Assembly (NCBI GenBank): GCA_902767245.1
Contig: CACXGO010000018.1
Location: 27,708-91,707 of the forward strand
DNA length: 64,000 nucleotides
Origin: an uncultured Erysipelotrichaceae bacterium
GTDB lineage: Bacteria; Bacillota_I; Bacilli_A; RF39; UBA660
Direction of reading: 5' to 3'
Shown in pieces: positions 7,245 to 33,677 of this stretch. Position 1 is the stretch's first letter, and every line of letters starts with the position of its first letter. The notes under the pieces were generated by a model. That model was given only the letters and a program-made list of their open reading frames with translations. It made no database searches and had not been told where the DNA came from. A program made the translations under genes and the position numbers.

Positions 7245-9162
7245 TTTTTTGCTTTTGATTTTTTTAATATTTTATATTAAGAATTATAATTATATTTCAA
7301 AATATAGTAATCAAAAAGAAATAACAGGTGTTGTCACCAAAATCACTAAAAGTAGTGATAGTATTAATATAATTTTAGATGCTAAAGAAAAAGTGTTACT
7401 AACTTGTTTTAAGTGTGATTTTAATTATGAGGTTGGTTCAATTGTAAGTTTTAAAGGTTATTTTAATGAAATAAAAGGTAGTTCTAATTTTAATTTGTTC
7501 GATTATAAAAAGTATTTAATGTCTTTAAAAATATATAAAAATTTTATCTTTACAGATTATAAATATATCAAAAAAAGTAACAAGTTTATTTACAAAGCAT
7601 ATAATATTTTGAATGATAGAATTAATGAATTAAAATCAAAAACATTTTTAAAATCGATGATTTTAGGCGAAACTAGTGAATATGGTGATATTTATGAAAT
7701 TTATAAACTAAATGGAATTGTTCATTTATTTGCAATTTCAGGAATGCATGTCGGAATTATTTCATCAGTATTAATTTTTATTTTCAAAAAATTTTTGAAA
7801 TTAGGCAATTTTGCTTACATAATAATATTTCCCATTTTAATTTTTTATATGTTAATTATTAACACTCCCTCAATAATAAGAAGTGTTTTAATGTTTATTA
7901 CTTCATCAATATCAAAAATATTTAAACTGAAAATAAGTAGTTTAAATATTTTGTTTTATTTAGTTTCAATTAATTTAATTATTAATCCTTATGTTATTTA
8001 CAATATGGGTTTTTGTTTAAGCTACATAATTGTTTTTTATTTAATGATTAGTTCTAAAAAAGTAGCAAAAATAAAAAACTATTTTTTAAAATTATTAACA
8101 CTTTCAACAATTTCTTTTTTGGCCAGTTTTCCTATAATAATTAATAGTAATTTTGAATTCAATTTACTTACACCGCTTATAAATGTTTTAATTGTTCCAT
8201 TTGTTTCTGTTATTTTATTTCCACTTGCATTATTGACTCTTTTTTTACCAATATTTGATAATATCTTATTTTTATTATTAAAAGGTTTTGATTATTTAAA
8301 TATATTTTTATCTAATTATTCAATAATTATTAATGTTGCATATATAAATATCTATTTAAACATTTTCTATTATTTAATTCTTTTGGTATCTTTTTATAAA
8401 ACAAAGCATATATATTTATTGCTTGTCTATTTATCAATTTTAATTAACATAAAAAACTTAAATTTTAATTCTTATTTGATTATGATTGATGTTGGTCAAG
8501 GAGATTCTATTTTTATAAAAAATTATTTTGGTGAAAATATTTTATTAGATGCTGGTTCTAAAGAAAATTCTGCCAAAAACATAATTATTCCATATTTAAA
8601 GTCTTTAGGAATTAATAGAATTGATCGTTTTATAATTTCCCATGGGGATAAAGATCATATAATTGGAGCTAAAGACATTATTAAAACTTTTAATGTTTTG
8701 CAAATATATTTAAATAGTTATAAAAATACTGATTATGAAAATGAAATAATAGATATAAGTGAAACTAACTTTATAAGTCAAAATACATATATTAATGAAC
8801 ATTTACATATATTTAATTATTATCAAAATAACGAAAATGATGATAGCTTAATTACATATTTGGTTGATTATGGAATTCTTTGTATGGGAGATGCAAGTGA
8901 AAATGTTGAAAATAAAATAAATTTATCAGACATCAATATTTTAAAAGTTGGACATCATGGTTCAAAGACGAGTACAAGTGAAAATTTCATAAAAAAGATT
9001 AATCCCAAAATATCATTAATTTCGGTTGGTTTAAAAAACAAATATAATCATCCAGATAAAGAGGTTTTAAACAATTTAAAAAACAGTTTAGTTTTAATGA
9101 CAAGTACAAATGGAATGATTAAAATCAATTTGAAATCATTAAAATATGAAACATATTATTAG
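7213..9162 (+). CDS. comEC: DNA internalisation competence channel ComEC/Rec2 with a C-terminal metallo-beta-lactamase domain
   Basis: Polytopic membrane core containing HLFAISGMHVG. C-terminal MBL motifs IDVGQGDS, ISHGDKDH and VGHHGS. The start could also be at 7198. Confidence 0.85.
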   Translation: MKNSRIIYLFNFLLLIFLIFYIKNYNYISKYSNQKEITGVVTKITKSSDSINIILDAKEKVLLTCFKCDFNYEVGSIVSFKGYFNEIKGSSNFNLFDYKKYLMSLKIYKNFIFTDYKYIKKSNKFIYKAYNILNDRINELKSKTFLKSMILGETSEYGDIYEIYKLNGIVHLFAISGMHVGIISSVLIFIFKKFLKLGNFAYIIIFPILIFYMLIINTPSIIRSVLMFITSSISKIFKLKISSLNILFYLVSINLIINPYVIYNMGFCLSYIIVFYLMISSKKVAKIKNYFLKLLTLSTISFLASFPIIINSNFEFNLLTPLINVLIVPFVSVILFPLALLTLFLPIFDNILFLLLKGFDYLNIFLSNYSIIINVAYINIYLNIFYYLILLVSFYKTKHIYLLLVYLSILINIKNLNFNSYLIMIDVGQGDSIFIKNYFGENILLDAGSKENSAKNIIIPYLKSLGINRIDRFIISHGDKDHIIGAKDIIKTFNVLQIYLNSYKNTDYENEIIDISETNFISQNTYINEHLHIFNYYQNNENDDSLITYLVDYGILCMGDASENVENKINLSDINILKVGHHGSKTSTSENFIKKINPKISLISVGLKNKYNHPDKEVLNNLKNSLVLMTSTNGMIKINLKSLKYETYY

Positions 9163-13238: not shown

Positions 13239-15290
13239 ATGAAAGTTTTAAAATTTATTGGGAATTTATTTAGATGGTATTTTTTAGGAATTGGGTATAT
13301 TTGTTACCTTATATATTTATTAATAAAACATATATTCTTTTATATTGGATATTTGCTTTCAGCAATATTCTATTTTATTTTTTCTGTTTTGACATTTAAA
13401 CATATAAGAAATATGAAAAATGGTTCATCAAAAATAGTAAAACCAGAAGATATTATTAAGAATAGTGAAACTAATGCTAATATAAAAGAAAATAATTTAG
13501 AAAATAATAATGCATCCGTTAATATTCAAAGTAATATTAATATTTCTGATGATTCAAATCAGAACAATCAATCAGATGCTAATATTCAGCAAAATGTTAT
13601 AGATGTTAATAATTATAATAATAAAGTAGAAGAAAATAAAACGCCTTTAAACATAAATCTTGAAGAAGAAACAGCAATTGAAAATGAGTTGCCATACGAA
13701 ACAGAACTTGGTGTAAATAATGCTAATTTTAAGGCTGAAGCATTTGATCCAAACAATCAGGGGAATTTAGGTTATCATGTGTTTGTAGAAAACAATAATA
13801 TTGCTGAAAACAAGAAAAATGATTCTGTTAAAGTTGAAAAGCAAATTATTAAAGAAGGCAAACTACTTAAAACAGCGAAATCAGAAGAAAAAGTGTTTAA
13901 AGAAATAGATGAAAAACAATCATTTCGTGATCGCTTAGCAATTGCTTTTCCAACTATTTTTGAAGCTTCAAGTGAAAGAAAAAGAGAACGAGAAGAAGCA
14001 AAGAAAAACAAAGAAATGAATGTTGATAGTGAACCAATTATTACTGAAAAAGAAGAAAGTAATATGGGGCCTAAGACTGTTTATGAATATACAGCTCGCG
14101 ATAAAAATGGTAAGTTAGTCAAAAATTATTATGAAGCTTATTCATTAGTTGAAGTACAATCATATTTATTAAGTGAAGGATATGATATATATAAAATAAG
14201 AACAAATCAAACCATCAATTTATTTCACAGAACAACTTCTGGCAAGAAAAAAATGAAAATAAGTGATATGGTATTTTTCTTAACTCAATTATCGACCTAT
14301 TTAAAAGCAGGTATTACATTAACTGAAGCTGTTGAAATCTTATCGCGTCAATTTAAAAAATTAAGTTATCAAAAAATATTTAGAGGAATAGCAAATAATT
14401 TAAAATCAGGAGATAATTTTAGCGAGGCGTTGGCAAAAACAGATGGAGTTTTTCCTAAATTACTTGTAAATATGGTTAAAACATCAGAATTAACGGGTGA
14501 TTTACCAGAAACTCTTGATGACATGGCTGATTATTATACTCAAATGGATAGAACCAAAAAGCAAATGCGTTCAGCTTTAACCTATCCAACAATGGTTTTA
14601 GTACTTGCCATTGGTGTTATTGCATTTGTTTTACTTTATGTAATTCCAAAATTTACATCAATTTATCAATCAATGGATGCAGCAACCATTCCAAAATTAA
14701 CAGTATTTATTATTAAAGCCAGTGATTTTATCAAAGCTAGTTATTATTACATAATTATTGGGTTTATAATATTGCTTTTAGTTATTAGATATTTATATAC
14801 AAATATAACTGCAGCTAGAGCTGCAATGCAAAGAATAGCTATGAAATTACCTGTTTTAAGAGAAGTCATAATTTATAATGAAGTAACAACATTTACTAAG
14901 ACATTTTCATCACTCTTAAAACATGGTGTTTATATAACAGATACAATGAACATATTGCTTCAAGTTACAAATAATGAAATATATCGTCGCTTAATTGCCA
15001 ATTGTATAAAACATTTACGTAAGGGTGAAAATATATCAGTTGCATTTAAAGGACATTGGGCTTTTCCAGTTCCAGCTTATGAAATGATTGTAACAGGTGA
15101 AAGAACAGGAAAATTAGCAGAAATGCTTGCTAAAGTTTCAGAATATTATCAAGATTTACATTCTAATATTGTAAATCGAATGAAAGTTATAATTGAACCA
15201 GTTTTGATAATTTTATTAACAGGTATCGTTGGTGTTATTATATTAGCAGTAATTGTGCCTATGTTTGGAATTTATTCATCACTAGGTTAG
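13239..15290 (+). CDS. Type IV pilus / Com platform protein (GspF/PilC/ComGB family) with a 275-aa N-terminal extension
   Basis: Residues 276-683 form a complete GspF core. This core starts at the usual TVYEYTARDKNGKLVK...LLSEGYDIYKI and has two GspF repeats and 3 TMs. Residues 1-275 add two extra TMs plus an N/Q/E/K-rich low-complexity linker. Confidence 0.85.
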   Translation: MKVLKFIGNLFRWYFLGIGYICYLIYLLIKHIFFYIGYLLSAIFYFIFSVLTFKHIRNMKNGSSKIVKPEDIIKNSETNANIKENNLENNNASVNIQSNINISDDSNQNNQSDANIQQNVIDVNNYNNKVEENKTPLNINLEEETAIENELPYETELGVNNANFKAEAFDPNNQGNLGYHVFVENNNIAENKKNDSVKVEKQIIKEGKLLKTAKSEEKVFKEIDEKQSFRDRLAIAFPTIFEASSERKREREEAKKNKEMNVDSEPIITEKEESNMGPKTVYEYTARDKNGKLVKNYYEAYSLVEVQSYLLSEGYDIYKIRTNQTINLFHRTTSGKKKMKISDMVFFLTQLSTYLKAGITLTEAVEILSRQFKKLSYQKIFRGIANNLKSGDNFSEALAKTDGVFPKLLVNMVKTSELTGDLPETLDDMADYYTQMDRTKKQMRSALTYPTMVLVLAIGVIAFVLLYVIPKFTSIYQSMDAATIPKLTVFIIKASDFIKASYYYIIIGFIILLLVIRYLYTNITAARAAMQRIAMKLPVLREVIIYNEVTTFTKTFSSLLKHGVYITDTMNILLQVTNNEIYRRLIANCIKHLRKGENISVAFKGHWAFPVPAYEMIVTGERTGKLAEMLAKVSEYYQDLHSNIVNRMKVIIEPVLIILLTGIVGVIILAVIVPMFGIYSSLG

Positions 15291-15303
15291 TAGGGGGGAT
15301 AAA

Positions 15304-16068
15304 ATGCAAATATTTATTTATATTATGATATTTGTATTTGGACTTGTTTTAGGGTCGTTTTATAATGTTTTAGGCTATCGATTACCAAAAAAACAATCGA
15401 TAGTTTTTCCATCTTCACATTGTCCAAATTGTAAGCATAAATTACATTTTATAGATTTAATTCCAGTTTTATCTTATGTTTTATTAAAAGGAAAATGTAG
15501 ATATTGCAAAAAAAAGATTTCAATTATATATCCAATTATTGAACTATTAACAGCCATTTTATTTACACTATCTTATTATTTGTACGGATTTTCAATAAAT
15601 TTTGGTATTTCGATAGTATTTTCATCAGTTGCAGTTATTATAATTGCCTCAGATATAAGATACTTAGTAATTAATGATGAAATACTAGTTATTGGAGGTA
15701 TTTTGATTATATTACTTTTAGGCATCAATGGAGATTTTAAGAAAGTATTAGATTTAATTATAAATGGTGTTATTAGCTTCTTAATCATGTTTTTAATTAA
15801 AATTATTGCTGATTTTGTATTTAAAAGGGAAGCTATGGGTGGTGGAGATGTGAAGTTACTTACATTAATTGGAGCACTTGTAAGCTACCCAATGTCTATT
15901 ATGACGTTATGCTTATCTGCATTTATTGCTTTCCCATATGCTATTTTTGTTTATTTTAATAAAAATGATCATGTTCTTCCCTTAGGGCCATTTTTATGTA
16001 TTTCTGGATTGATTATCTATTTTTTAGGTATTAATTTTAATGATTTAATGCAAATAATGGCAAAATAA
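15304..16068 (+). CDS. Prepilin peptidase (A24 family; PilD/ComC)
   Basis: N-terminal CPNC...CRYC zinc motif, a polytopic membrane core, and catalytic-Asp contexts ASDIRYLVINDE and GGGDVKLL. Confidence 0.9.
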   Translation: MQIFIYIMIFVFGLVLGSFYNVLGYRLPKKQSIVFPSSHCPNCKHKLHFIDLIPVLSYVLLKGKCRYCKKKISIIYPIIELLTAILFTLSYYLYGFSINFGISIVFSSVAVIIIASDIRYLVINDEILVIGGILIILLLGINGDFKKVLDLIINGVISFLIMFLIKIIADFVFKREAMGGGDVKLLTLIGALVSYPMSIMTLCLSAFIAFPYAIFVYFNKNDHVLPLGPFLCISGLIIYFLGINFNDLMQIMAK

Positions 16069-16097
16069 AACTGAGTTTGTTTATTACTCAGTTTTTT
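16067..16097. terminator. Bidirectional terminator between the convergent prepilin peptidase and ATPase genes
   Basis: AAAA-CTGAGT-TTGTTTATT-ACTCAG-TTTTTT: an A-run and a T-run flank the hairpin. Confidence 0.7.
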
Positions 16098-17412
16098 AAA
16101 TGTCTAAAGTTTCAAAAGTATCATCTGGCTTTACATCTTCTAAGGTCGTTTTTTCTGCAGCATATTCAACTGGTTCATCAATTATTTCAGGGTTTGATCC
16201 TTCTGTTTCAATTTCATCCATTTGAATATCATCTGTTTCAATTAAACGCATAACTTCTTCCAAAGATGTTAATCCTTGTTCAACTTTCATAAGCCCATCT
16301 TGAAATAAAGTTATAGCATTTTCTTTATCATAAACTAAATTTCTTAATTCTTCTTTTGGCATTGAATCATTTATAGCATCTCTAATAGCTTCGTTAATTA
16401 ATAATACTTCTTGAATTGCAATACGGCCTAAATATCCATGGTTGCATTTATCACAACCATCAGAATAGAACATCTCATTTATATCCTTATTTAGATATTT
16501 TTTAAATATTTCTCTTTCATATTCTTTTGCAGGTCTTTTTTTCATACAATGTGGACATAACCTACGAGCAAGTCTCTGTGAGATAATTCCTGACAAAGCA
16601 GTTGCAAGTAAGTATCTTTCAACATCCATATCAAGTAAACGTTCAATTGTTGTTAAAGAGTTATTAGTATGAATAGTTGAAAGTACTAGGTGGCCAGTGA
16701 TTGAAGCACGAACTGCTATTTTTGCAGTTTCACTATCACGAATTTCTCCAATCATAATTATATCCGGGTCTTGACGCAAGATTGAACGAAGAGTACTTGC
16801 AAAAGTAAGACCGATCTCACTATTTACTTGAACCTGATTAACACCTGGCAAATCCATTTCAATTGGATCTTCAACAGTGATTAAGTTTACATCTTCATGA
16901 TTAATTCTTTGAAGTATTGAATAAACTGTTGTTGATTTACCAGTACCAGTAGCACCAGTAACCAAAATAATTCCACTAGGTTTATTAATCATCTCAATTA
17001 CTTTATCGTAATTTTGTTTATTAAAATCTAAATTTTCAATACCGTTCATATTCGCTTTATAATCCATAATACGAATAACAACTTTTTCACCTAAATTAGT
17101 TGGCAAACTTGAAACACGCATATCAAGTTCTTCAGATTCAATTGTGATTTTAATTGCTCCATCTTGTGGAAGTCGTGTTTCTGTTATATTCATACCACTT
17201 AAAATTTTAATTCTAGTGATCAAATTCTGCTTGTATTCATTTGGAACAAGTGCATAATCAATTAGTGTTCCATCGATACGAATTCGTATTTTTACAAAAC
17301 GATCGTATGGATCAAAATGAATATCACTCGCTTTACGAATAGATGCATCATATAATATATCATTAACAATTTCAACAATTGGAGTGTCAGAAAAATTATA
17401 TTTTTTTAACAT
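16096..17412 (-). CDS. Type IV pilus / Com assembly ATPase (GspE/PilB/ComGA family)
   Basis: Walker A GATGTGKST, Asp box, Walker B DPDIIMIGEIRD, His box TGHLVLSTIHTN, and tetracysteine CPHC...CDKC. The last ~45 aa form an unusual acidic tail. Confidence 0.9.
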   Translation of the reverse strand: MLKKYNFSDTPIVEIVNDILYDASIRKASDIHFDPYDRFVKIRIRIDGTLIDYALVPNEYKQNLITRIKILSGMNITETRLPQDGAIKITIESEELDMRVSSLPTNLGEKVVIRIMDYKANMNGIENLDFNKQNYDKVIEMINKPSGIILVTGATGTGKSTTVYSILQRINHEDVNLITVEDPIEMDLPGVNQVQVNSEIGLTFASTLRSILRQDPDIIMIGEIRDSETAKIAVRASITGHLVLSTIHTNNSLTTIERLLDMDVERYLLATALSGIISQRLARRLCPHCMKKRPAKEYEREIFKKYLNKDINEMFYSDGCDKCNHGYLGRIAIQEVLLINEAIRDAINDSMPKEELRNLVYDKENAITLFQDGLMKVEQGLTSLEEVMRLIETDDIQMDEIETEGSNPEIIDEPVEYAAEKTTLEDVKPDDTFETLDI

Positions 17413-17503
17413 TTTATCCCTCTTTATTCATTACCACTGGTAATTATTCTAAAAGTATTATATAATAATATTAGTCAAAATTCAATAATAAAGGGGAGCA
17501 ATT

Positions 17504-18064
17504 ATGAAAAAAAATGGTTTTATGGTTGTTGAGTGCGTAATTGCATCAGTTGTTGTCTTAACGGTTATAATAGTTTTATATACTCAAATAAAATCTGTAA
17601 TTAGAACTTATAATAAAAGTTATAATTATGACAATGTAAGCAGTCTTTATTCACTTTCAAATTTTCGCTCATTTGTATTAACTGGCGATAATTATGATAA
17701 ACTTGTTTCAAAATATCAAGAAAATAAAAATACTAATAGCTCTGTCTGTGGTAAAAATTATGTGTTTGTTTCTTGCAGTATTTTTAATGCAACTAATTAC
17801 TGTGACACACTTTTAAATGTAATGGGAATAACAACTACAAATATACGTCCACAGCAAATAATTTTTACTTCTTCAGATTTAAATGAATTAAAATCATGTG
17901 ACTTAAAACATGAAGCGGGGATGTTAAAAGATTCATTTGTTGATTACATTTTGTCATTAAATGTTGACAAAGAAGAAAATAAATATATGTTGATAGCAGA
18001 ATTTGACGATAGTACGCTTGCATCTATCAATCTATATCGAGCAAGCGAGGTGCAGAATGGTTAA
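17504..18064 (+). CDS. Prepilin-type (class III signal) minor pilin-like protein, 186 aa
   Basis: N-terminus MKKNG/FMVVECVIASVVVLTVIIVLY: Gly at -1, Glu at +5 and a hydrophobic helix. Confidence 0.7.
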   Translation: MKKNGFMVVECVIASVVVLTVIIVLYTQIKSVIRTYNKSYNYDNVSSLYSLSNFRSFVLTGDNYDKLVSKYQENKNTNSSVCGKNYVFVSCSIFNATNYCDTLLNVMGITTTNIRPQQIIFTSSDLNELKSCDLKHEAGMLKDSFVDYILSLNVDKEENKYMLIAEFDDSTLASINLYRASEVQNG

Positions 18065-19772
18065 ACTTAATAATAAAGGACTATCGGTTGTCGAATTAAT
18101 TGTTTCATTTGTACTTTGCATTTTAGTATTTATATTTGTAATTCAAGTTGTATCTGCTATTGAAGAACTTTATGTAAATTTGGGAATAAAGACAGAATTA
18201 TTAAATAAACAATCATTGATAAGTCAAAAATTAAATGAAAAATTCACAAATAAAAAAACAATTTTGATTAAAAATTGTGGAAATAATTGTCTTACTTTTT
18301 TTTATAAAGATAATACATCAGAAAAAATTAAAATAGATAAAAATGCTAATTCATTTATTATTGGAGATGACATTTATAATTTTAATGGTTTAGGTTTTGT
18401 TGATTCTTTAATAGTCACAACCAATAAAACACAAAATTATAATTATGAAATTTTAACGATAAATCTAAATGTAAAAAATACTATTTTCGATAGCGGAAAA
18501 TATATAATAAAATCACTATATCAATACAATAGCAATGAAGTAGTATATAGCGCATCAACAAGTAATAATGCAGAAATTTTCTTGTTAGGGCCTTCAACAA
18601 CTTATAAATTTGCTAATGATGTATTTATTGAACCAGGATGGATTGTTTATTATCCAAGTGGCAAAATAACAATAAATGGTACTGATGTTCAACCTTCAAA
18701 GATAAATTATGACGAAGATGGTAATGGTAGTATTACTTATCGAGGAATTGGTGAAGCTGCTGGTTCTGAAAAGGTAAGAGTTATTAGAAAAAATGAAACT
18801 GCTAAAGACCATATTGTAAGTTTATATAATGATCAAAAAGATGGCGTTTATTTATATGAGCAGTTTGGAAAATATATATACAAAGGTGCGAATGTAAAGA
18901 ACTATATATCAATTGGTAATAAGATGTTTAGGATAATATCTTTAGATATTCAATCACACTATAAATTGGATGAAGATGGGAATGTTATCACAATTGATGG
19001 TGAAAAACAAAAAGAAAATAAATATTTATTAAAAGTAGTAAGTACAGACTATGTTACTGATGAAAATAATAATAATTTGATTGCGTTTGATGATCAAACT
19101 TCAAATATTAATCAATCGCTTTGGATGGAAAAAGTATGCATTACCGAAACAAACTGTGAAATAAAGAAACAAACAATTAATAGGATTGTAAATGACATTT
19201 ATTTACAAGGATTGCTAAATACAGGTACAGGTAAAATGGCAATTAAAAATGGAATTTTTAATGTTGGCCTTGTAGACTTTAATATATATAAATTTGCAGC
19301 AACTAACATCGAAAACAATGTAGACTATACATACTCTGCTCAAACTATTTATGAATTAGAAGGAGCGGATGTGACTACAGAAACTGGTGTAATTTATCCT
19401 GGTAAATGGCATGGAAATTGCTTGGAAGATGTTTGTGGTCCAAATGCTGGCATATTAACTTTAACTGATGTTTTATTTACTAGTAATAATTCAAGATGCT
19501 TAGATGAATTACTTGTAAATAAAAGTGGTGCCAGCTGTTCAAAGGATAATTGGTTATGGTATCAAAATCCAAATAGTGAGGAAGTTTATCGCTTAATGAC
19601 TAGACTTGCACCTTTAGCTACATGGTTGCTTACAGAATACAATTTTCTTAGTTCGAATAAGATTTATGTACCATATAAAACAAGAGCCACATTATTTTTA
19701 GATGCGAATTTATATATTGCTGGTGATGGTTCATATGATAATCCATATACTTTATATTCTATAAATGTATAA
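18057..19772 (+). CDS. Large prepilin-type protein, 571 aa (candidate tip/minor pilin)
   Basis: ATG 18057 overlaps the upstream stop (AATGGTTAAA). N-terminus MVKLNNKG/LSVVELIVSFVLCILVFIFVI has Gly -1 and Glu +5. The rest is a long beta-rich, Cys-containing domain. Confidence 0.65.
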   Translation: MVKLNNKGLSVVELIVSFVLCILVFIFVIQVVSAIEELYVNLGIKTELLNKQSLISQKLNEKFTNKKTILIKNCGNNCLTFFYKDNTSEKIKIDKNANSFIIGDDIYNFNGLGFVDSLIVTTNKTQNYNYEILTINLNVKNTIFDSGKYIIKSLYQYNSNEVVYSASTSNNAEIFLLGPSTTYKFANDVFIEPGWIVYYPSGKITINGTDVQPSKINYDEDGNGSITYRGIGEAAGSEKVRVIRKNETAKDHIVSLYNDQKDGVYLYEQFGKYIYKGANVKNYISIGNKMFRIISLDIQSHYKLDEDGNVITIDGEKQKENKYLLKVVSTDYVTDENNNNLIAFDDQTSNINQSLWMEKVCITETNCEIKKQTINRIVNDIYLQGLLNTGTGKMAIKNGIFNVGLVDFNIYKFAATNIENNVDYTYSAQTIYELEGADVTTETGVIYPGKWHGNCLEDVCGPNAGILTLTDVLFTSNNSRCLDELLVNKSGASCSKDNWLWYQNPNSEEVYRLMTRLAPLATWLLTEYNFLSSNKIYVPYKTRATLFLDANLYIAGDGSYDNPYTLYSINV

Positions 19773-23327: not shown

Positions 23328-25262
23328 ATGCGTAAAAATGGCTTTACTTTAGTAGAAATGTTAACGGTTATAATAATATTAGTCATAATAAGTTTGCTTG
23401 CTATTTTTTCAATAACTGCGACTGTTAAAAGCTCAGCGGAAAAATTATATAAAGTTCAGATAGATAGCATTATTGATGCAAGTAGAACATATGCCATAAA
23501 AAATAATTCTATTTTGGCTGACAGTACTGAGATAACAATATGTGATTTAAAAAGATCAAGTTTACTTGATAATGATCTTAAAAATCCTAAAACTGAAGAA
23601 CCATTTGATAATGATTTAATAATAAAAATTATTCGTGATAGAGATGGTGAATTTAAGTTTCAATTTGATGGCATTAAAAAAATGGAAAATTATAATTGCG
23701 ATTTAGATGTTTCTGTTAGTTTAAAAGGGAATTCCCCATTATATGTAAGCCTTGGTTCAATATATGTAGAGCAAGGTATAAATGTAAAAAGAAAAGATTT
23801 AAATTGTACTTATGGTCATGGAACTGCAAGTAATACAGCCTGTTATTATGATTATGTTAAAAGTGGTTCATATAGTTCTGCTTTAAATGGAAATAAATAT
23901 AATAAAGTTGGCACATTTGAAGAAAGTTATAATGTTACTAGTGATTCATTTACGACCTCTATTACAAGAACAATAATAGTTCAAGATAAATCTGCACCTG
24001 CTATTTCAGTTAATTACAAAGGAACCGTTTACAATAATCCTTTTACTGCGAGAATTATAGAGTCTGATTCACCAGCAACTTTTTCTTGCATTGCAGTGGA
24101 TGATTATGATGGTAATGTTGCTTGTAACATTTTGAAAAATGATTATAATAACACTAAAAATCCAGGAACATATGAAATCATTTATAAAGCAAGTGATAAA
24201 AACAATAATGTGGCAACTTTTACAGTTAATGTAACAGTTTTACCAAAAAACAAAAATTTAATTGTTGGATTAAATGTAGACAATGTAAATTGGACAAATC
24301 AGAGCGTTAATTTTAAAATTTATCCATTATACGATAAAAATGGTTGTTCAAAATATAATTATGATTTTGGAAATGGAATTTGGGTTGAAAATGATACCAG
24401 TGAAATATTGAGAAATGGGACTTATAATGTCGGTATTAAATGTGAAAATGGTAATGTTGAAGACTACTTAACATATAGAGTTACTAACATAGATAAAGAT
24501 CCGCCAGTTTTTTCGCAAAGCGAAATAGGAATTAATGTTCAACCAAAAGTGTCTGGTAAAAAAGTTATTATAAATACAACAAATAACATAAAGTATTACA
24601 TTGCAAATGACACAGTTGTCTTATCAGATTCAACTGGAGCCTATGATAGTGGAACGGGTGTTGCTGGTTATAATATTTATATCAATGATGAGATTAATTC
24701 TATAAATGAAATTAGTGCTGAAGGAGTATATGAAATAAAAATTAATGCTTATGATTATGCTTCGAATCAAAGTGATCCTATACTCGCAGGATATGTTGTA
24801 ATAACAAAAAGTATACCAACATGTACATTTTCAAATAGTACAACCAATGCAATATTTAATAATAATGGTGATGTTACATACAATAACGGAATTTATAAGT
24901 TGACTAATAATAATTATCCAATAACAATTTCTTACAGATTTTCGTGCTCTTATGAATACTTCGAAAATGCTGATGTTTTAACAAGACCAAAGCTAAAAAA
25001 ACTTGCAAATTTTTATTTAAGAGAGCAATCGGGTATAAATGGGCAGTATAATCTTGTTGAGTTAGGATCATGGGTATTAGAAGGTGCTCCTGTTTGTGAA
25101 AATAGTAAATGTGTTAAAACTTATAATAATATGATAACACTTAGAATTAATGGTTTAGATGATATAGCATATTTAAATTTAGAAAAAAATTCATTTTGTG
25201 ATGATTTAGATAACTGTAATAATCGTAAAGTTCAATCGCAGGCGCTTGCAAAAGCAAATTAA
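23328..25262 (+). CDS. Modular type IV pilin, 644 aa: a canonical pilin module plus a ~530-aa Ig-like extension
   Basis: The prepilin signal MRKNG/FTLVEMLTVIIILVIISLLA is textbook. Residues ~1-115 look like a complete ComGC/PilE-size pilin (ITICDLKRSSLLDNDLKNPKTEEPF). This is followed by a DUF5011-like segment (AVDDYDGNVACNILKNDYNNTKNPGTYEIIYKASDKNNN) and further beta-rich, Cys-containing domains. Confidence 0.8.
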   Translation: MRKNGFTLVEMLTVIIILVIISLLAIFSITATVKSSAEKLYKVQIDSIIDASRTYAIKNNSILADSTEITICDLKRSSLLDNDLKNPKTEEPFDNDLIIKIIRDRDGEFKFQFDGIKKMENYNCDLDVSVSLKGNSPLYVSLGSIYVEQGINVKRKDLNCTYGHGTASNTACYYDYVKSGSYSSALNGNKYNKVGTFEESYNVTSDSFTTSITRTIIVQDKSAPAISVNYKGTVYNNPFTARIIESDSPATFSCIAVDDYDGNVACNILKNDYNNTKNPGTYEIIYKASDKNNNVATFTVNVTVLPKNKNLIVGLNVDNVNWTNQSVNFKIYPLYDKNGCSKYNYDFGNGIWVENDTSEILRNGTYNVGIKCENGNVEDYLTYRVTNIDKDPPVFSQSEIGINVQPKVSGKKVIINTTNNIKYYIANDTVVLSDSTGAYDSGTGVAGYNIYINDEINSINEISAEGVYEIKINAYDYASNQSDPILAGYVVITKSIPTCTFSNSTTNAIFNNNGDVTYNNGIYKLTNNNYPITISYRFSCSYEYFENADVLTRPKLKKLANFYLREQSGINGQYNLVELGSWVLEGAPVCENSKCVKTYNNMITLRINGLDDIAYLNLEKNSFCDDLDNCNNRKVQSQALAKAN

Positions 25263-27907: not shown

Positions 27908-27952
27908 TTGAAAAAAACTTTCTCCTGTTATATAATTGAAATGAGGGATTTT

Positions 27953-28642
27953 ATGGAAGAAATTAATTTAACTGATTTATTAAAATATTTTATAAGTAGA
28001 ATATTAATTATTATTTTAATTACAATTTTTTGTGGTTTACTTGGATCAATGTATTCACTATTTTTACAAACACCTATGTACAAATCTAAAACAACATTAC
28101 TTTTAGCTAATGTTTCAACTTTTGATTCAAATAATGTATCTGGTAATTTATCTACAGATATTACATTGAATCAAAAACTTGTTTCAACATATCGTGAAAT
28201 AATTAAAAGTAAGAGAGTATTAAAACAAGTAATAAGAAAATTGGATTTAGATTTGGAATATGATACTTTAAAAAACATGATTTCTGTTGATTCAATATCA
28301 AATACTGAAGTCATATCAGTAACAGTAACCAACAAAAGTCCAGAGGCTGCTGCTTATATTGCTAATGAAGTAGCTAATACCTTCTGTGATGAAATAGTTA
28401 ATATTTATCAAATTCAAAATGTAAACATAATTGATAAAGCTGAAGTAAGTAGTAATCCATATAATATTAATTTAGTTAAGCAAATAATTATTTATTTATT
28501 AATTGGTTTTGTATTAGGGTGTGGAATTGTATTCATTATTTACTATTTTGATACAACAATAAAAACAAAAGAAGAAATTGAAGAAAAAGTAGGCTTACCA
28601 GTTTTAGGTATTATTCCTTTAAAAAAGGAGGCACGTAAATGA
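27953..28642 (+). CDS. Wzz/CpsC/YwqC-type polysaccharide co-polymerase (BY-kinase transmembrane modulator)
   Basis: GAGGG RBS before ATG 27953. Two TMs flank a Wzz-like loop (YKSKTTLLL...LVSTYREIIKSKRVLKQV). The ATGA overlap with the kinase gene indicates coupling. Confidence 0.8.
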   Translation: MEEINLTDLLKYFISRILIIILITIFCGLLGSMYSLFLQTPMYKSKTTLLLANVSTFDSNNVSGNLSTDITLNQKLVSTYREIIKSKRVLKQVIRKLDLDLEYDTLKNMISVDSISNTEVISVTVTNKSPEAAAYIANEVANTFCDEIVNIYQIQNVNIIDKAEVSSNPYNINLVKQIIIYLLIGFVLGCGIVFIIYYFDTTIKTKEEIEEKVGLPVLGIIPLKKEARK

Positions 28643-29316
28643 AAAATGATTTAGTTGTAGTTACTTCACCAAAAGCTATCATAAGTGAAGGTTTTAGAAC
28701 CCTAAGAACAAATTTACAATTTTCAACTATTGATTCTAAAATTCAAACAATAGCTGTTGTTAGTTCAATGCAAGGAGAAGGTAAAAGCTTTGTATCAGCT
28801 AATTTAGCTTGTGCGTTTGCTCAAGCAGGCGAAAAAGTATTATTGATTGATTGCGATATGAGACGTGGTCGTTTACATAAAATATTTAATATTGAAAACG
28901 AAAATGGGTTTTCTAATTTACTAATATCTGATATTAAAGATTTTAATTCATATATTAAAAAAACTGAAATTAAAAATCTTTCAGTTTTACCAATGGGAGC
29001 AATTCCTCCTAATCCAGCTGAATTAATTGCAAGTTCAAAAAACGAAAAATTAATGGAATTATTAAAAGAAAAATATGACGTTATTATATATGATTGTGTA
29101 CCTGTAACAGGGCTTACAGATTCGCTTATTATGTCAAAGTTAGTTGATAAAACAATAATTGTTGCAGCATCAAAAGTAACACCATTAGAACTTTTGCAAA
29201 ATACTAAAAAATCACTTTTAAATGTAGGTGCTGATATTGCTGGTGTTGTTTTTAACCGAGTTAGTACTGAAAGAAGTATTTATGCTAATAAATACTATGG
29301 TAAATATTATTCATGA
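28639..29316 (+). CDS. Bacterial tyrosine kinase, cytoplasmic subunit (CpsD/CapB/YwqD type)
   Basis: Walker A SSMQGEGKS, Walker A' LLIDCDMRRG, Walker B VIIYDCVP, and a C-terminal Tyr cluster YANKYYGKYYS. Confidence 0.85.
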   Translation: MKNDLVVVTSPKAIISEGFRTLRTNLQFSTIDSKIQTIAVVSSMQGEGKSFVSANLACAFAQAGEKVLLIDCDMRRGRLHKIFNIENENGFSNLLISDIKDFNSYIKKTEIKNLSVLPMGAIPPNPAELIASSKNEKLMELLKEKYDVIIYDCVPVTGLTDSLIMSKLVDKTIIVAASKVTPLELLQNTKKSLLNVGADIAGVVFNRVSTERSIYANKYYGKYYS

Positions 29317-30080
29317 TAGATATCCACTCACACATCTTATATGGAATTGATGATGGAGCTAAAAACATTGATGACAGTGTTAGTCTAATTAATAGTGCTA
29401 TTAAAAACAATGTTAAGAAAATTATTCTTACACCGCATTATATTGTAGAATCAAATTCAATAACTCCAAATAAGACCAAAAAAGAAATATTGAATAAAAT
29501 AAAAAAACAAGTTTCTTCAGAAGTTGAACTTTATTTGGGTAATGAAATATATATGGATGATGATATTGCTTCATTAATTGATGCTAATAAAATTATGCCT
29601 TTAGCAAATAGCAAATATTTATTAATTGAGCTTCCAATATATAATGAATATCCAAACTTAGAAAACAAATTGTTCTCTTTAAGAAATTTGGGATACAAAA
29701 TTATAATTGCTCATCCAGAAAGATATTACTATTTTAAAAATGATTTTAGTAAATTACTTAAGCTTTGTAAACAAGGCATTTACTTTCAAGGTAATTATAT
29801 GTCACTTTATGATATATATGGTAAAAGTACAAAAAAATTATTTTTAAAAATATTAAAACATCATTGCTATAGTTTTATGGCGAGTGATATTCATATGCCT
29901 AGTCAAAAATATTATGATAAAATTAGCGATGCCAAAGCTAAAATAGCAAAAATTACAAATAAATCTTATTGTGATGATATATTTTATAACAATGCGGATA
30001 AAATAATAAAGAACGAAGAAGTAGAAAATAGTTATAAAGAAAAAATATCAATTTTTGATAGAATAAGAGGGAATAAATGA
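29313..30080 (+). CDS. PHP-family protein-tyrosine phosphatase (CpsB/YwqE type)
   Basis: N-terminal MIDIHSHILYGIDDGA, then TPH, AHPERY and SDIH metal-binding motifs. Confidence 0.85.
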   Translation: MIDIHSHILYGIDDGAKNIDDSVSLINSAIKNNVKKIILTPHYIVESNSITPNKTKKEILNKIKKQVSSEVELYLGNEIYMDDDIASLIDANKIMPLANSKYLLIELPIYNEYPNLENKLFSLRNLGYKIIIAHPERYYYFKNDFSKLLKLCKQGIYFQGNYMSLYDIYGKSTKKLFLKILKHHCYSFMASDIHMPSQKYYDKISDAKAKIAKITNKSYCDDIFYNNADKIIKNEEVENSYKEKISIFDRIRGNK

Positions 30081-31219
30081 AAAAGAAGTTAATAATATTA
30101 TTCTTGTTTCTAATATTTCCTTTTTTTGTATCTGCATATACAAAAGAGGATATAATTAAACTTGTAGACAATCAAAAAACATGTGATCAAGAAACAGAAA
30201 ACATGTATTCAAAATATTTTAATATATATTCGAGATTGTTAAAAAAGAAAGATGTATCTGAAGGTGACTTGAATCAAATTCATACAAATTTAACTAAAGC
30301 CTTGGTAATTGCAAATAAATATAACTTATGCAGTATTGATGATCTTGATAATATACCAAAGAAAGAGAAAAGCGAATTATATAATTACTTGTATGATAGT
30401 TATAAATTAATTTTAAAATCAAAAAATCTGGATGATACAGAAACAAATGTTATTTATAATGGCGATGGTACAATAGATATATATGAAAATGGTGAACACT
30501 TAGAACAAATCAAAACAGCAAAAGATACATTTAACTATGTTGGATTAAGCAAATACTTTGTTTATTTAAAATACCTTTTACCATTTAGTTTAATCGTTAT
30601 TTTTATATTTGTGATGAAAACAAGAAAAAAGATTTTTATTAATGAAATACTTATAATTTTACTAGTGATTGATATTATTCTAACTTTAGTATATTTTAAA
30701 GCAGGAAATAAAATATATGATGCTTATAATCTTATAAAATCTATGAGTTATATTGAAAATAAAGAAGTAACTAAAATTGAAGTCAAAAATAAAAAAATTA
30801 TTAAATATCCCAGTTTTGGTTCAAAATATGGTGTATTAAAAATAGATAATCTTGGAATCAACTTACCAATTTTTTACGGTGACTCCAAAGAAATATTAAA
30901 AAAAGGCATTGGACATAGTCAATCATTTCCAGGTTTTGGAGGGACAACTATATTAAGTGGCCATAATTCAAAGATTTTTTTAAATAGTTTAAAAAATATT
31001 AAGATTTCTAGTTTAATTGAAGTTGAGACTGATTATGGAGCTTTTATATATAAAGTAAGAAAAATTGAAATATTAAATACTGATCAATATTCAAAATTAG
31101 AAAAAGGAAAAAATGAAATTATTTTGTATACATGTTATCCATTTGATGAAATAGTTTATTCAAATCAGAGATTTGTTGTTTATGCTAGTTTAATAGAATC
31201 GAAGTGGTTGAATGGTTAA
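30077..31219 (+). CDS. Sortase-domain protein with an atypical ~230-aa N-terminal extension (signal peptide, extracytoplasmic domain, two TMs)
   Basis: The C-terminal ~145 aa carry the sortase His (TILSGHNS), Cys (ILYTCYPF) and Arg (NQRFVVYA) contexts. ATGA overlap with the phosphatase gene. Confidence 0.7.
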   Translation: MKKKLIILFLFLIFPFFVSAYTKEDIIKLVDNQKTCDQETENMYSKYFNIYSRLLKKKDVSEGDLNQIHTNLTKALVIANKYNLCSIDDLDNIPKKEKSELYNYLYDSYKLILKSKNLDDTETNVIYNGDGTIDIYENGEHLEQIKTAKDTFNYVGLSKYFVYLKYLLPFSLIVIFIFVMKTRKKIFINEILIILLVIDIILTLVYFKAGNKIYDAYNLIKSMSYIENKEVTKIEVKNKKIIKYPSFGSKYGVLKIDNLGINLPIFYGDSKEILKKGIGHSQSFPGFGGTTILSGHNSKIFLNSLKNIKISSLIEVETDYGAFIYKVRKIEILNTDQYSKLEKGKNEIILYTCYPFDEIVYSNQRFVVYASLIESKWLNG

Positions 31220-31976
31220 AAGAATAATTTTTATTACACTAATAACATTTTTAATATTAGTTTCACTTTCTTTTGTTGTTTATTCAAAAATTTTTAATAA
31301 AAATCAAATCGTTCAGGAATTTAATCGTATCAATTATTATGATTATGTATATAAAGAAATAAATAAAAATTTGGAGTTAGAGTTACCAAATTCGGAGCTA
31401 TCATACCTTTATTTTAATTATTTAACTATTTCACAAGTAAAAAAAGATATTAATGTTGTTTTAGATTCATATTTAAGCAAAAAAGATAATGATGTTAAAA
31501 CAAAATTTTATAATAACATTATAAATAATTTTGAAAACAAAAATGATGCATATGTAAAAGAATTAGCAAAAAGATTATCAAATACATATTATAGTGGTTT
31601 ATTTAGTTTTGATAAATTAGATAAATTTATCGAAAAATTGCCATATCGAAATATATCTAAGAAAGTTGCAATTGTTAGTTTATTTATAACAATTTTAATA
31701 ATACTTTTATCAATAAAAAAAGACTTAATTGATATATCAATTTCATTTATTACAAGTGGAATAATATTTATAATTCCCAAGATTTTTATTCATTTTAAAA
31801 ATATTTTATTAAATTTTTACTATTATAATAAATCGCTTTCTTACTTTATTAAGAATTATATATTTCATTTGATTAATATATTCTTTAAGATTGGATTTAT
31901 ATTGATGATTTTAGGCCTAATTGGTTTTACTATACATTATATTAGACATTTTAGATTGACTAGCAGTGTAAAGTGA
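31212..31976 (+). CDS. Polytopic membrane protein of unknown function, translationally coupled to the sortase gene
   Basis: 8-nt overlap (AATGGTTAAA). N-terminal TM, a ~130-aa soluble segment and 3-4 C-terminal TMs. No motif recognised. Confidence 0.5.
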   Translation: MVKRIIFITLITFLILVSLSFVVYSKIFNKNQIVQEFNRINYYDYVYKEINKNLELELPNSELSYLYFNYLTISQVKKDINVVLDSYLSKKDNDVKTKFYNNIINNFENKNDAYVKELAKRLSNTYYSGLFSFDKLDKFIEKLPYRNISKKVAIVSLFITILIILLSIKKDLIDISISFITSGIIFIIPKIFIHFKNILLNFYYYNKSLSYFIKNYIFHLINIFFKIGFILMILGLIGFTIHYIRHFRLTSSVK

Positions 31977-32010
31977 GATATAATTTAAGTAATAATAGGA
32001 GGAGTGAATT

Positions 32011-32445
32011 ATGAATTTGATTAATTTTTTAGCCGTAGGAGTAAAATGTGGCGATACTGAAATTGGTGGGATGATTGTAGGAATTATTGGGACTATTTAT
32101 AATGGAATTAAGATAGGGGTGCCAATAATCTTAATAATTGTTGGTATGGTTGGAATGGGGAAGGCCATAGCCCAACAAAAAGAGGATGAAATAAAGAAAG
32201 CCCAAAGCACATTAATTAAACAAGCAGTAGCAGCAGTAATAGTATTTTTAATGTTTCAATTAGTACAACTTGGAATGAGTGCTTTAAATGTTAAAAACGA
32301 TTCAAATTGGCAATGTGTTAAAATGATATTAATTCCACCAAAAGATGGTGACGACTGTAAAATGGATGACGGTAATGGTGGCGGATGGAGAATTCTCAAT
32401 GAAAATACCAATGATGCAATGTGGGAATGCCAAAGTAGGGGATAA
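32011..32445 (+). CDS. Two-TM hairpin small protein, paralog 1 of 4 (TrbC/VirB2-like topology)
   Basis: GGAGG RBS. Conserved core IYNGIKIGVPIILIIVGMVGMGKAIAQQKEDEIKKAQSTLIKQAVAAVIVFLMFQLVQL. The C-tail is variable and contains WQC...C...WEC. Confidence 0.65.
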   Translation: MNLINFLAVGVKCGDTEIGGMIVGIIGTIYNGIKIGVPIILIIVGMVGMGKAIAQQKEDEIKKAQSTLIKQAVAAVIVFLMFQLVQLGMSALNVKNDSNWQCVKMILIPPKDGDDCKMDDGNGGGWRILNENTNDAMWECQSRG

Positions 32446-32451
32446 AATTCA

Positions 32452-32886
32452 ATGACTATGATTAATTTCTTAGCGACAAAAGGAATAATTTGTGCAGGAA
32501 TCAGATTAGAAGGAGATATTGTCGGAATTATTCGAACCGTTTATAATGGAATAAAAATAGGAGTTCCTTTAATCTTGATTTTTGTTGGAATGTTTGGCAT
32601 GGCCAAAGCAATCACTATGCAAAAGGAAGATGAAATAAAAAAAGCTCAGAATTTACTTGTTAGACAAGCAGTAGCAGCAGTAATAGTATTTTTAATGTTT
32701 CAATTAGTACAACTTGCAATGAGTGTAATTAAAGTAAAAAATTCATCAAATTGGTCTTGCGTAAAAGCTGTTTTAGTTGAACCAGATTCTAAAACAAAAT
32801 GTTATACAGATGATGGAAAAGAAGCTTATTGGGGCTCTGACCACTTAACTGATTCATATTGGCAATGTGATGGAGCGGCTGGTTAA
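32452..32886 (+). CDS. Two-TM hairpin small protein, paralog 2 of 4
   Basis: Same core (VYNGIKIGVPLILIFVGMFGMAKAITMQKEDEIKKAQNLLVRQAVAAVIVFLMFQLVQL). It shares a 53-nt identical run with paralog 1 and long identical runs with paralog 3. Confidence 0.65.
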   Translation: MTMINFLATKGIICAGIRLEGDIVGIIRTVYNGIKIGVPLILIFVGMFGMAKAITMQKEDEIKKAQNLLVRQAVAAVIVFLMFQLVQLAMSVIKVKNSSNWSCVKAVLVEPDSKTKCYTDDGKEAYWGSDHLTDSYWQCDGAAG

Positions 32887-32918
32887 AAACTTATTATAAA
32901 TAAAATTGAGGTGATATA

Positions 32919-33263
32919 ATGTTTTTCTTAGATGAAATGTGTGGTGCATGTGCATCCGCTGGTCTTGGGAATATTCCTAATCAGGTAGTTAATATAATAC
33001 ATATTGTTTTTGTAGCAATAAAAATAGGAGTTCCTTTGATTCTAATTTTTGTTGGAATGTTTGACATGGCTCGCGCAATCACTCTACAAAAGGAAGATGA
33101 AATAAAAAAAGCTCAAAATTTATTGGTAAGAAAAGCAGTAGCAGCAGCTTTAGTGTTTTTAATGCTTTCTTTAGTCAGCACATTATTTAGTGTTGTTGGC
33201 GGTGAAGGATCAGAGAATATTTGGAGTTGCGTTAATGCACTTTTAAATGGTATATGTTCATAA
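32919..33263 (+). CDS. Two-TM hairpin small protein, paralog 3 of 4
   Basis: GAGGTGA RBS. Core AIKIGVPLILIFVGMFDMARAITLQKEDEIKKAQNLLVRKAVAAALVFLM. The N-tail has CGAC and the C-tail has WSC...ICS. Confidence 0.65.
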   Translation: MFFLDEMCGACASAGLGNIPNQVVNIIHIVFVAIKIGVPLILIFVGMFDMARAITLQKEDEIKKAQNLLVRKAVAAALVFLMLSLVSTLFSVVGGEGSENIWSCVNALLNGICS

Positions 33264-33293
33264 AAAGTATCAATGATACTTTTTGTTTTTTTT
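33263..33293 (+). terminator. Rho-independent terminator after paralog 3
   Basis: AAAAGTATC-AAT-GATACTTTT followed by a T-rich run. An extended -10 TGTTATAAT (TATAAT at 33309-33314) follows and could drive paralog 4 separately. Confidence 0.7.
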
Positions 33294-33332
33294 AAAATAA
33301 TTTTATGTTATAATGATTTTGGTGACTAATCT

Positions 33333-33656
33333 ATGTTTTTGGATATTATGTGTGCTGGAACTGAACTTCCAGATTATGTTGGATATTATGTATCATTAAT
33401 ATATTTTGCAATACGTATTTGTGTTCCAATTTTATTAATTATTGTTGGAATGATTGATATGGGAAGAGCAATTGTCTCTAAAAAAGAAGAAGATGTTAAA
33501 AAAGCTCAAGGACTATTATTAAAAAAAGTAGTTCTTGGAATAATAGTATTCTTACTTCCTTACTTTGTTGAATTAGTTATTAAGATATTTACTAAAGATA
33601 ATGAATTAGTTGATTGTATTAAAAAACTTATAGATTATAGAACAAATTTATTTTAG
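33333..33656 (+). CDS. Two-TM hairpin small protein, paralog 4 of 4 (most divergent)
   Basis: Core AIRICVPILLIIVGMIDMGRAIVSKKEEDVKKAQGLLLKKVVLGIIVFLLPYFVELV. It has its own promoter-like box and terminator. Confidence 0.6.
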   Translation: MFLDIMCAGTELPDYVGYYVSLIYFAIRICVPILLIIVGMIDMGRAIVSKKEEDVKKAQGLLLKKVVLGIIVFLLPYFVELVIKIFTKDNELVDCIKKLIDYRTNLF

Positions 33657-33677
33657 ATTGCATTGCAATCTTTTTTA
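33655..33677 (+). terminator. Rho-independent terminator after paralog 4
   Basis: AGATTGC-ATT-GCAATCT followed by TTTTTT. Confidence 0.65.

Follow-up and report, generated by a model that had tools for sequence, protein, structure and literature searches.

Four small genes that follow one another on the + strand of a 64,000-nucleotide (nt) stretch of DNA from an uncultured Erysipelotrichaceae bacterium (contig CACXGO010000018.1; the whole stretch is called the window below) raise the question of what kind of protein they encode and what an array of this kind does between a sortase gene pair and recD2. The genes encode proteins of 144, 144, 114 and 107 amino acids (aa) with a common core composed of a first transmembrane segment (TM1), a charged loop and a second transmembrane segment (TM2), as the first-pass annotation of this DNA had described and as both the open reading frames (ORFs) and the alignment confirm. 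We consider it fairly probable that they are leaderless VirB2-like hairpin proteins, of the T4SS_pilin or Mbov_0395 type, uncoupled from the machinery of a type IV secretion system (T4SS) that accompanies their relatives; the function ascribed to them here is a putative one. The window, of about 25% G+C, has a chromosomal look.

Copy 1 (32011-32445, 144 aa, as given in the ORF list) is a type-1 hairpin protein, with Cys13 in its N-terminal tail (N-tail), TM1 at about residues 22-50, the loop GKAIAQQKEDEIKKAQ, TM2 at about residues 72-93, and a 50-aa C-terminal tail (C-tail) with Cys102, Cys116 and Cys140. Copy 2 (32452-32886, 144 aa) is classified as a lineage-specific duplicate of type 1 whose central patch resembles copy 3, that is, a mosaic. 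Copy 3 (32919-33263, 114 aa) represents type 2, with a short C-tail, Cys8 and Cys11 in the N-tail, and Cys104 and Cys113 in the C-tail, while copy 4 (33333-33656, 107 aa) represents type 3, recognizable by the loop KKEEDVKK, the motif FLLPY in TM2 and a short C-tail. Alignment of the four proteins leaves 29 invariant columns, which make up the core I.IGVP..LI..GM..M..AI...KE...KKAQ..L....V....VFL and one Cys per tail; the tails are variable, each carries Cys as had been proposed, and the ends of the C-tails are soluble and Cys-rich or short and polar. The number of extramembrane Cys residues is even in all four proteins (4, 4, 4 and 2).

The topology suggested earlier, with both tails exposed and the Lys-rich loop in the cytoplasm, holds at the level of prediction. 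Hydropathy reveals two hydrophobic spans in each of the four proteins, and the connecting loop contains 5-6 Lys or Arg residues vs. 0-2 in the N-tail. In the AlphaFold2 model of copy 1 (predicted local distance difference test score, pLDDT, 72.7) long antiparallel helices at 20-54 and 58-91 are followed by a small β-rich C-terminal part, and the model of copy 4 (pLDDT 81.3) consists of long antiparallel helices at 14-48 and 52-87. Since 92 of the 105 relatives with more than 45 aa before TM1 start with a signal-peptide-like segment, the N-terminal side of TM1 can be placed outside, and hence the loop inside. Hydropathy, charge, models and signal-peptide-bearing relatives thus agree in predicting a two-TM helical hairpin with both termini outside and a short charged loop inside. 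A search of PDB sequences with the family profile gave nothing at E ≤ 10.

The Cys residues flanking the hairpin were surveyed in 243 non-redundant members of the family taken from the fetched loci. A Cys lies 5-16 residues before TM1 in 242 of them and 6-18 residues after TM2 likewise in 242 of 243, the share of Cys in the core being 0.2%. This near-universal pair probably forms an extracytoplasmic disulfide that ties both ends of the protein.

Relatives of the hairpin proteins and the link to type IV secretion

A profile of the four proteins matched 873 of 8,000 scored candidates, all of them unnamed and one labelled Erysipelotrichaceae. When 1.84 billion cluster representatives were searched exhaustively with a profile, 7,458 clusters at 50% identity were returned with E ≤ 1e-3, and 2,836 with E ≤ 1e-10. 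Three forms can be distinguished in the family: short proteins, about 100-200 aa long; proteins in which a signal peptide and an N-terminal Cys-rich domain precede a C-terminal hairpin; and proteins with an N-terminal hairpin followed by up to 800 aa that include Big_2 domains, or by an NlpC/P60 domain. It is also worth mentioning that in one relative of 307 aa, P0122, an unrelated N-terminal region, which may be phage-tail-like by its look, is joined to a hairpin beginning in the middle of TM1; a chimera of the assembly or an error of gene calling is the probable cause.

A scan of species-representative genomes yielded 79 loci, from metagenome-assembled genomes (MAGs) of uncultured Bacilli, 'Tenericutes', Mollicutes and Bacillota. 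ORF calling combined with a hidden Markov model (HMM) showed the family nearly always in tandem arrays of 2-8 genes. Some low-GC, Bacilli-like contigs with hairpin arrays are deposited as 'uncultured Muribaculaceae' MAGs (L010, L014, L016, L030 and others), labels that are probably the result of taxonomic mislabelling or bin contamination.

When the neighbouring genes were clustered and representatives annotated, a conserved operon emerged in most loci. It encodes an RcpC/CpaB-like protein, a CpaF/VirB11-like ATPase (best PDB match CpaF, 1.5e-17) and two polytopic proteins, then a Flp-like protein of about 75 aa, two proteins of about 150 aa that look TadE-like and a 324-aa protein, then the hairpin array, which is often broken by one 365-aa protein. 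The array is followed by a polytopic VirB6-like protein of about 700 aa resembling the MMCAP2_0566/Mbov_0396 transmembrane families of integrative and conjugative elements (ICEs) (E 5e-8), a 107-aa two-TM protein (cluster c9), a split VirB4 of the Mbov_0397 family (E 6e-103), a CHAP-domain protein and a lipoprotein. In all 50 loci that carry VirB4 the array is located downstream of the Tad-like pilus module and upstream of the VirB6-like, VirB3-like, VirB4 and CHAP genes, and in the same 50 of 50 a family member ends no more than 3 kb from the VirB6-like or the VirB4 gene; the array therefore stands where mycoplasma ICEs have the Mbov_0395 'pilin-like' gene. Across the 120 best of the 90%-identity clusters in the database the identity of VirB4 is 80-84%, so the locus combining Tad and T4SS genes can be considered a core-like system rather than a sporadic mobile element. 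Neither a relaxase nor a coupling protein was seen within ±10 kb in the related loci. The super-operon of Tad-like genes, hairpin array and T4SS genes is seen in L035 (1-19400), also in L011 and L047, and in about 50 further loci of RF39-like Bacilli, and it looks like the system of T4SS and pilin array of Patescibacteria, in another phylum.

The four window proteins belong to this same family. An HMM built only from 162 domains in the 50 VirB4-linked loci matches copy 1 at E 3.3e-34, copy 2 at 2.7e-30, copy 3 at 1.2e-33 and copy 4 at 3e-31, and hhalign aligns the window-type alignment with the T4SS-linked set at a probability of 100%. Among 46 diverse family domains, Pfam PF18895 (T4SS_pilin) is matched at E < 1e-3 by 10, the best at 7.7e-7, the other Pfam matches at that level being single ones to T4SS_CagC, MglA_C and DUF621; the relative P0162 scores 25.1 bits with PF18895, and 12 of the 22 window-type members match it weakly (best 3e-4). 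Among the 46, 15 match NF045849 (Mbov_0395 pilin-like) at E < 0.1, with a best value of 4.5e-6, making it the NCBIfam family with the most members matched.

Some results weigh against the VirB2-like reading of the window proteins. With PF18895, whose gathering threshold is 26.6 bits, copies 1 and 2 reach 13.8 and 14.1 bits (E ~0.05), and copies 3 and 4 give no match; none of the four matches NF045849 at E ≤ 1. Unrelated TM families, MamI and DUF621, also match at weak E-values. When the two AlphaFold2 models were compared with the PDB by Foldseek, the matches were generic helical hairpins, all at E > 1, with no pilin among them. The signal peptide that is typical of VirB2 is missing from the window proteins: only 12-22 aa precede TM1, and nothing there resembles a signal peptide. 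Homologues of VirB4, the VirB6-like protein and the CHAP protein are absent among the ORFs of the 64-kb window in phmmer searches with queries from related loci, which for the ORFs at 1-5 kb and 47-64 kb were the only T4SS check; within that scope the earlier remark that no T4SS genes are nearby stands. Finally, single members of the family, fused to Ig-like or NlpC/P60 domains, are also found among housekeeping genes. Long single members, in which the N-terminal hairpin precedes 500-800 extracellular residues (Big_2), are encoded after sepF-divIVA and before ileS, and the NlpC/P60 fusion is encoded after rpoZ; the single-copy long members are found at L088 1665-4397, L087 603-2732 and L006 10001-11398. 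Given such single members, whose sequence type is similar, after sepF-divIVA or next to rpoZ, the hairpin can evidently work without an adjacent T4SS.

Since the copies miss both the PF18895 threshold and NF045849, their link to named pilin families is transitive. Resting on this transitivity and on synteny, homology to VirB2-like T4SS pilins at the superfamily level is nevertheless likely. The pointer to TrbC/VirB2 or Mbov_0395-like pilins given in the first-pass annotation was therefore right at the family level, as divergent members match PF18895 and NF045849 and the family adjoins T4SS genes in every VirB4-carrying locus.

Several other candidates were considered and set aside. Scanned directly against Pfam and NCBIfam, the four proteins gave only matches below threshold, for the most part spurious TM ones (DUF621, AbrB, Frizzled, MglA_C). 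DUF621, a nematode family, matches all 22 window-type members, always under the cut-off, and was treated as a composition artefact. Type IV and Flp pilins were rejected in view of the two TM helices and the lack of an N_methyl match and a prepilin motif, only sub-threshold TadE/Tad matches being obtained, for copy 4.

Probable exchange of sequence among the copies

The order surface proteins–Wzz/CpsD/CpsB–sortase–membrane protein–array–RecD2 is found in nine of 87 sources (the window, L001-L005, L008, L009 and L010), in which the array counts 3, 4 or 5 copies. A tree of the copies resolves three ancient types in a fixed order. The last copy is a conserved orthologue in all window-type loci, with the loop KKE(E/D)DVKK and the motif FL(L/I)PY. 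The single type-1 gene of L008 is the partner of the window's copies 1 and 2 in this tree, and copy 3 groups with gene 2 of that locus; by this branching, copies 1 and 2 represent a lineage-specific duplication of type 1.

The first two copies share a perfect run of 53 nt in the TM2 region (32220-32272 = 32664-32716, + strand), exactly as first described, which is a candidate gene-conversion tract. Its length exceeds that in all 10,000 site permutations (p < 1e-4). Degenerate codons for the same amino acid are identical in 16 of 16 cases inside the tract vs. 13 of 33 in the remaining conserved core (Fisher 2.5e-5), so constraint at the protein level cannot explain the run. Upstream of the tract, the + strand region 32550-32648 of copy 2 has exact runs of 21, 19 and 29 nt in common with copy 3 (33017-33115), again in agreement with the earlier observation. 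In 30-nt windows over 32550-32648, copy 2 is 86, 76 and 96% identical to copy 3, and copies 1 and 2 are 76, 60 and 76% identical to each other. Copy 2 can be considered a mosaic, because it is nearer to copy 3 at nt 120-210 of the alignment and nearer to copy 1 at nt 240-270. The identical runs, the permutations and the synonymous codons together support the view that the paralogues exchange sequence through gene conversion.

Variation of the array between strains was followed in five strain-level contigs of one related, five-copy species. In the sortase gene, the membrane-protein gene, copies 3-5 and recD2 the identity among the strains is about 100%; exactly over copies 1-2 it is 81-98%. There, the proportions of synonymous (pS) and non-synonymous (pN) differences reach 0.06-0.16 and 0.03-0.07, respectively, vs. 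about zero in copies 3-5 and the sortase gene. As both values are high over copies 1-2 and close to zero in the flanks, imported or converted alleles, not point mutation alone, are indicated. Substitutions of amino acids are found in the N-tail and in the region of the TM2 end and C-tail, and the core is invariant. Strain comparison thus disclosed strong variation confined to copies 1-2, and the first copies appear to be hot spots of recombination between strains. In one strain of this species an insertion sequence (IS) with a DDE transposase is located between copies 2 and 3 (L004 8077-9477).

Transcription signals and surroundings of the array

Upstream of copy 1 a promoter-like site on the + strand, TTGACT–17-nt spacer–TATAAT (31956-31984, 11 of 12 consensus matches, a consensus match only), overlaps the end of the preceding membrane-protein gene. 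Copy 3 is followed by a terminator-like 12-bp hairpin with a U-run (33260-33293, + strand; folding -9.8 kcal/mol, z -4.37), which folds more strongly than the terminator-like hairpin and T-run found by scan and folding after copy 4 (33655-33671, + strand; -6.6 kcal/mol, z -2.65). From the hairpin after copy 3 it is predicted that copies 1-3 probably form one transcription unit. Copy 4 had been credited with an extended -10 promoter and a terminator of its own. The element TGTTATAAT is indeed read directly from the + strand sequence at 33306-33314 and the terminator-like structure is present, but the promoter scan made no call, passing over the element because it has no -35 sequence; on this basis copy 4 appears to have its own transcription unit.

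The gene pair preceding the array (30077-31976, + strand) encodes a sortase of 380 aa, with a class D-like domain at residues 254-372, and, overlapping it, a polytopic membrane protein of 254 aa that belongs to no known family; the pair is kept only in the window-type clade. The N-terminal extension of the sortase, of about 250 aa, contains a signal peptide and TM segments. Between the surface-protein genes and the sortase gene lies a trio encoding Wzz, a CpsD-like kinase and a CpsB phosphatase (27908-30080), which no obvious glycosyltransferase or flippase gene adjoins.

The window begins with ftsW, comEA, comEC, dnaG, sigA and trmK. A type IV pilus set comprises a PilC-like gene (13239-15290) encoding an unusually long protein of 683 aa, a prepilin peptidase gene (PilD, 15304-16068) and, on the - strand, the gene for a PilB/GspE-type ATPase (16096-17412, E 1e-144). 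Large proteins of 589 and 644 aa with prepilin-type N-termini are encoded at 18003-19772 and 23328-25262. The comEA/comEC genes (6657-9162) lie near this pilus gene set (13239-19772). The 589-aa prepilin-type protein has weak similarity (E 2e-10 over about 100 aa) to c15, the protein that interrupts the hairpin arrays of RF39-like loci. After the pilus set come genes for a Lon/PDZ protein and for Ig-like, dockerin and cadherin-like surface proteins. Downstream of the array, RecD2 (693 bits to TIGR01448), an HD protein, CmpB, a 1,129-aa glucosaminidase and a Mur ligase are encoded.

Possible roles of the array and its place among known systems

If the window proteins are VirB2-like hairpins uncoupled from their machinery, as is fairly probable, each would insert so that both ends lie outside and the conserved K/E-rich loop (QKEDEIKKAQ) is cytoplasmic. 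A disulfide between the flanking Cys residues would tie the ends, as a functional analogue of the head-to-tail cyclization of T-pilin, TrbC and TrhA. The hairpin would then serve as the membrane and assembly module, and the tails would be the exposed, diversifying part. In most relatives, the arrays would supply a chromosomal, relaxase-less T4SS (VirB6-like, VirB3-like, VirB4, CHAP) coupled to a Tad-like pilus module. In the lineage of the window, the array may have been relocated to, or retained in, its place between the sortase/membrane-protein pair and recD2, with a duplicated variable type 1, one type 2 and a conserved type 3; duplication, gene conversion and recombination between strains would diversify the tails into a variable surface repertoire. 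Exposure at the surface, an assembly resembling a pilus and any reliance on a T4SS encoded in another part of the genome are likewise inferred.

Among the other explanations, the one that survives best, plausible but less likely, is that the hairpin, no longer a pilin in this lineage, has been exapted as a generic anchor for surface display: with both termini outside, it would present short Cys-knotted peptides (copies 1-3) or, in other genes, large adhesin or hydrolase domains, independently of any T4SS. The single genes after sepF-divIVA with their N-terminal hairpin and extracellular extensions of 500-800 aa including Big_2, the NlpC/P60 fusion next to rpoZ, the lack of a T4SS gene in the window and the synteny with surface-protein, Wzz/CpsD/CpsB and sortase genes in nine sources all speak for it. 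A simple anchor, however, would have no need for three to five tandem paralogues or for a conserved, distinct type-3 copy, and conservation of the cytoplasmic loop and TM core in the window proteins equals that in T4SS-linked members. The window proteins score about 100 bits to the HMM built from T4SS-linked members only, which suggests that the same interaction partner has been retained.

A further, decidedly tentative proposal is that monoderms other than Patescibacteria, namely gut Bacilli related to RF39 and Erysipelotrichaceae, possess VirB2-type pilin arrays, and that in the lineage of the window the array has been cut loose from the T4SS and forms a new class of disulfide-closed, recombinationally variable hairpin surface proteins. 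They might be assembled by a distant T4SS or by another machine, for instance the products of the type IV pilus genes that lie about 15 kb upstream or the adjacent sortase/membrane protein, and might act in strain-specific contact between cells or with the host.

The array could also belong to the neighbouring sortase/surface system, for instance as a membrane platform or as substrates acting with the sortase and the 254-aa protein, as the first-pass annotation had envisaged. It was right that the array lies directly 3' of the sortase genes, 35 nt past the pair, and the order sortase–membrane protein–array is kept in all window-type loci. Membership in that system is nonetheless improbable. 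Motif scanning of the four proteins found no sorting signal, that is, no LPXTG-like motif, hydrophobic stretch and basic tail, and for want of such a C-terminal signal sortase-dependent pilins or substrates were rejected as candidates. In the window no canonical LPXTG-type substrate was found either, the sole motif match being a spurious one in FtsW. The promoter-like site stands between the sortase pair and copy 1. The family as a whole occurs overwhelmingly without a sortase, beside T4SS and Tad genes, and sortase adjacency is limited to one small clade (nine of 87 sources).

Less probable still is that the proteins are VirB3-like inner-membrane subunits of a T4SS rather than pilins, as their small two-TM size and their similarity to the Mbov_0395 family might suggest. 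The Mbov_0395-family counterpart may be CDS15 of the mycoplasma ICE. Both CDS13 and CDS15 of that element have been described as VirB3-like (PMC12857230). The related loci, however, hold a separate, single-copy gene for a 107-aa two-TM protein just upstream of VirB4, the usual position of VirB3/PrgI, and in these loci the hairpin family is multi-copy and located upstream of the VirB6-like gene. VirB3 is not characterized by multi-copy arrays, signal peptides, hypervariable exposed tails or large extracellular fusions.

A holin or a small membrane protein of the bacteriocin/immunity type, brought to mind by the small size, the two TM segments and the Cys-containing tails, is effectively excluded: no holin was matched in PHROGs or Pfam, tblastn found no match in 50,697 phage and 72,556 plasmid records, no endolysin, ABC exporter or leader peptidase is adjacent, and the flanks are chromosomal genes in a synteny conserved across species.

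Returning to the VirB2-like reading, the closest parallel is offered by Patescibacteria, in which tandem VirB2-like arrays of 2-11 genes occur near virB4 (PMC12102498); the array of six genes in Southlakia epibionticum is essential (PMC12857230). Here, too, tandem, divergent, small two-helix hairpin proteins are encoded in a monoderm, their relatives match PF18895 and adjoin VirB6-like/VirB4 genes, and the T4SS of the relatives is chromosomal, relaxase-less and accompanied by a type IV filament system. Unlike the Patescibacteria, the host belongs to a low-GC lineage of gut Bacilli, and the window proteins fall below the PF18895 threshold, lack a signal peptide and have no T4SS gene within 64 kb. 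To our knowledge, the arrays of candidate phyla radiation (CPR) bacteria have not been described as having a near-invariant Cys pair that flanks the hairpin.

With Mbov_0395/MMCAP2_0565 of the mycoplasma ICEs, the related loci share the order pilin-like gene–Mbov_0396-like TM protein–Mbov_0397-type VirB4. In the relatives, however, this order is found in a conserved chromosomal context, not on an ICE, with no relaxase seen; arrays replace the single gene, and in the window the proteins do not match the model and the gene order is absent. Unlike the mycoplasmas, the host has a cell wall, as the Mur ligase and sortase genes in the window indicate.

Duplicated pilin genes are also known from Bartonella and Anaplasma, whose tandem VirB2 paralogues have variable exposed parts that are read, as cited in PMC12102498, as antigenic or ligand variation. 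In the window-type array the strain-level variation is confined to copies 1-2. The systems of Bartonella and Anaplasma are diderm VirB/D4 systems with the pilin genes inside the virB operon, unlike the window array, and no sequence similarity to them was detected here. The VirB2 T-pilin, TrbC of RP4 and TrhA of R27 are two-helix hairpins in which a covalent bond on the outer side links the N- and C-termini (PMC12037004, PMC13434634). That closure is a peptide bond made by a dedicated protease, whereas in the window family it would be a hypothetical disulfide; by analogy, the Cys pair could give the same closure. No homologue of the cyclase came to light, no search aimed at one having been made.

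Tandem VirB2-like arrays were already known from CPR bacteria and some diderm pathogens, and the T4SS classes of Gram-positive bacteria have been said to lack virB2 homologues (PMC12102498). The wide presence of arrays in non-CPR gut Bacilli is at odds with such current review statements: the same kind of array is widespread in uncultured gut Bacilli with reduced genomes, as the 7,458 clusters at 50% identity attest. In the literature searched, no description was found of a leaderless 'orphan' array beside a sortase gene, nor of the near-universal Cys pair. In the window variant, the array survives without adjacent machinery and bears the hallmarks of a variable surface locus, namely, conversion among paralogous genes and a hot spot of recombination at the strain level. 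A disulfide as a testable counterpart of pilin cyclization is suggested by the near-invariant Cys pair. If the proteins are exposed and variable, they might serve strain-specific adhesion or the recognition of partners in gut bacteria that are abundant and uncultured, and they may also be useful strain markers in metagenomes.

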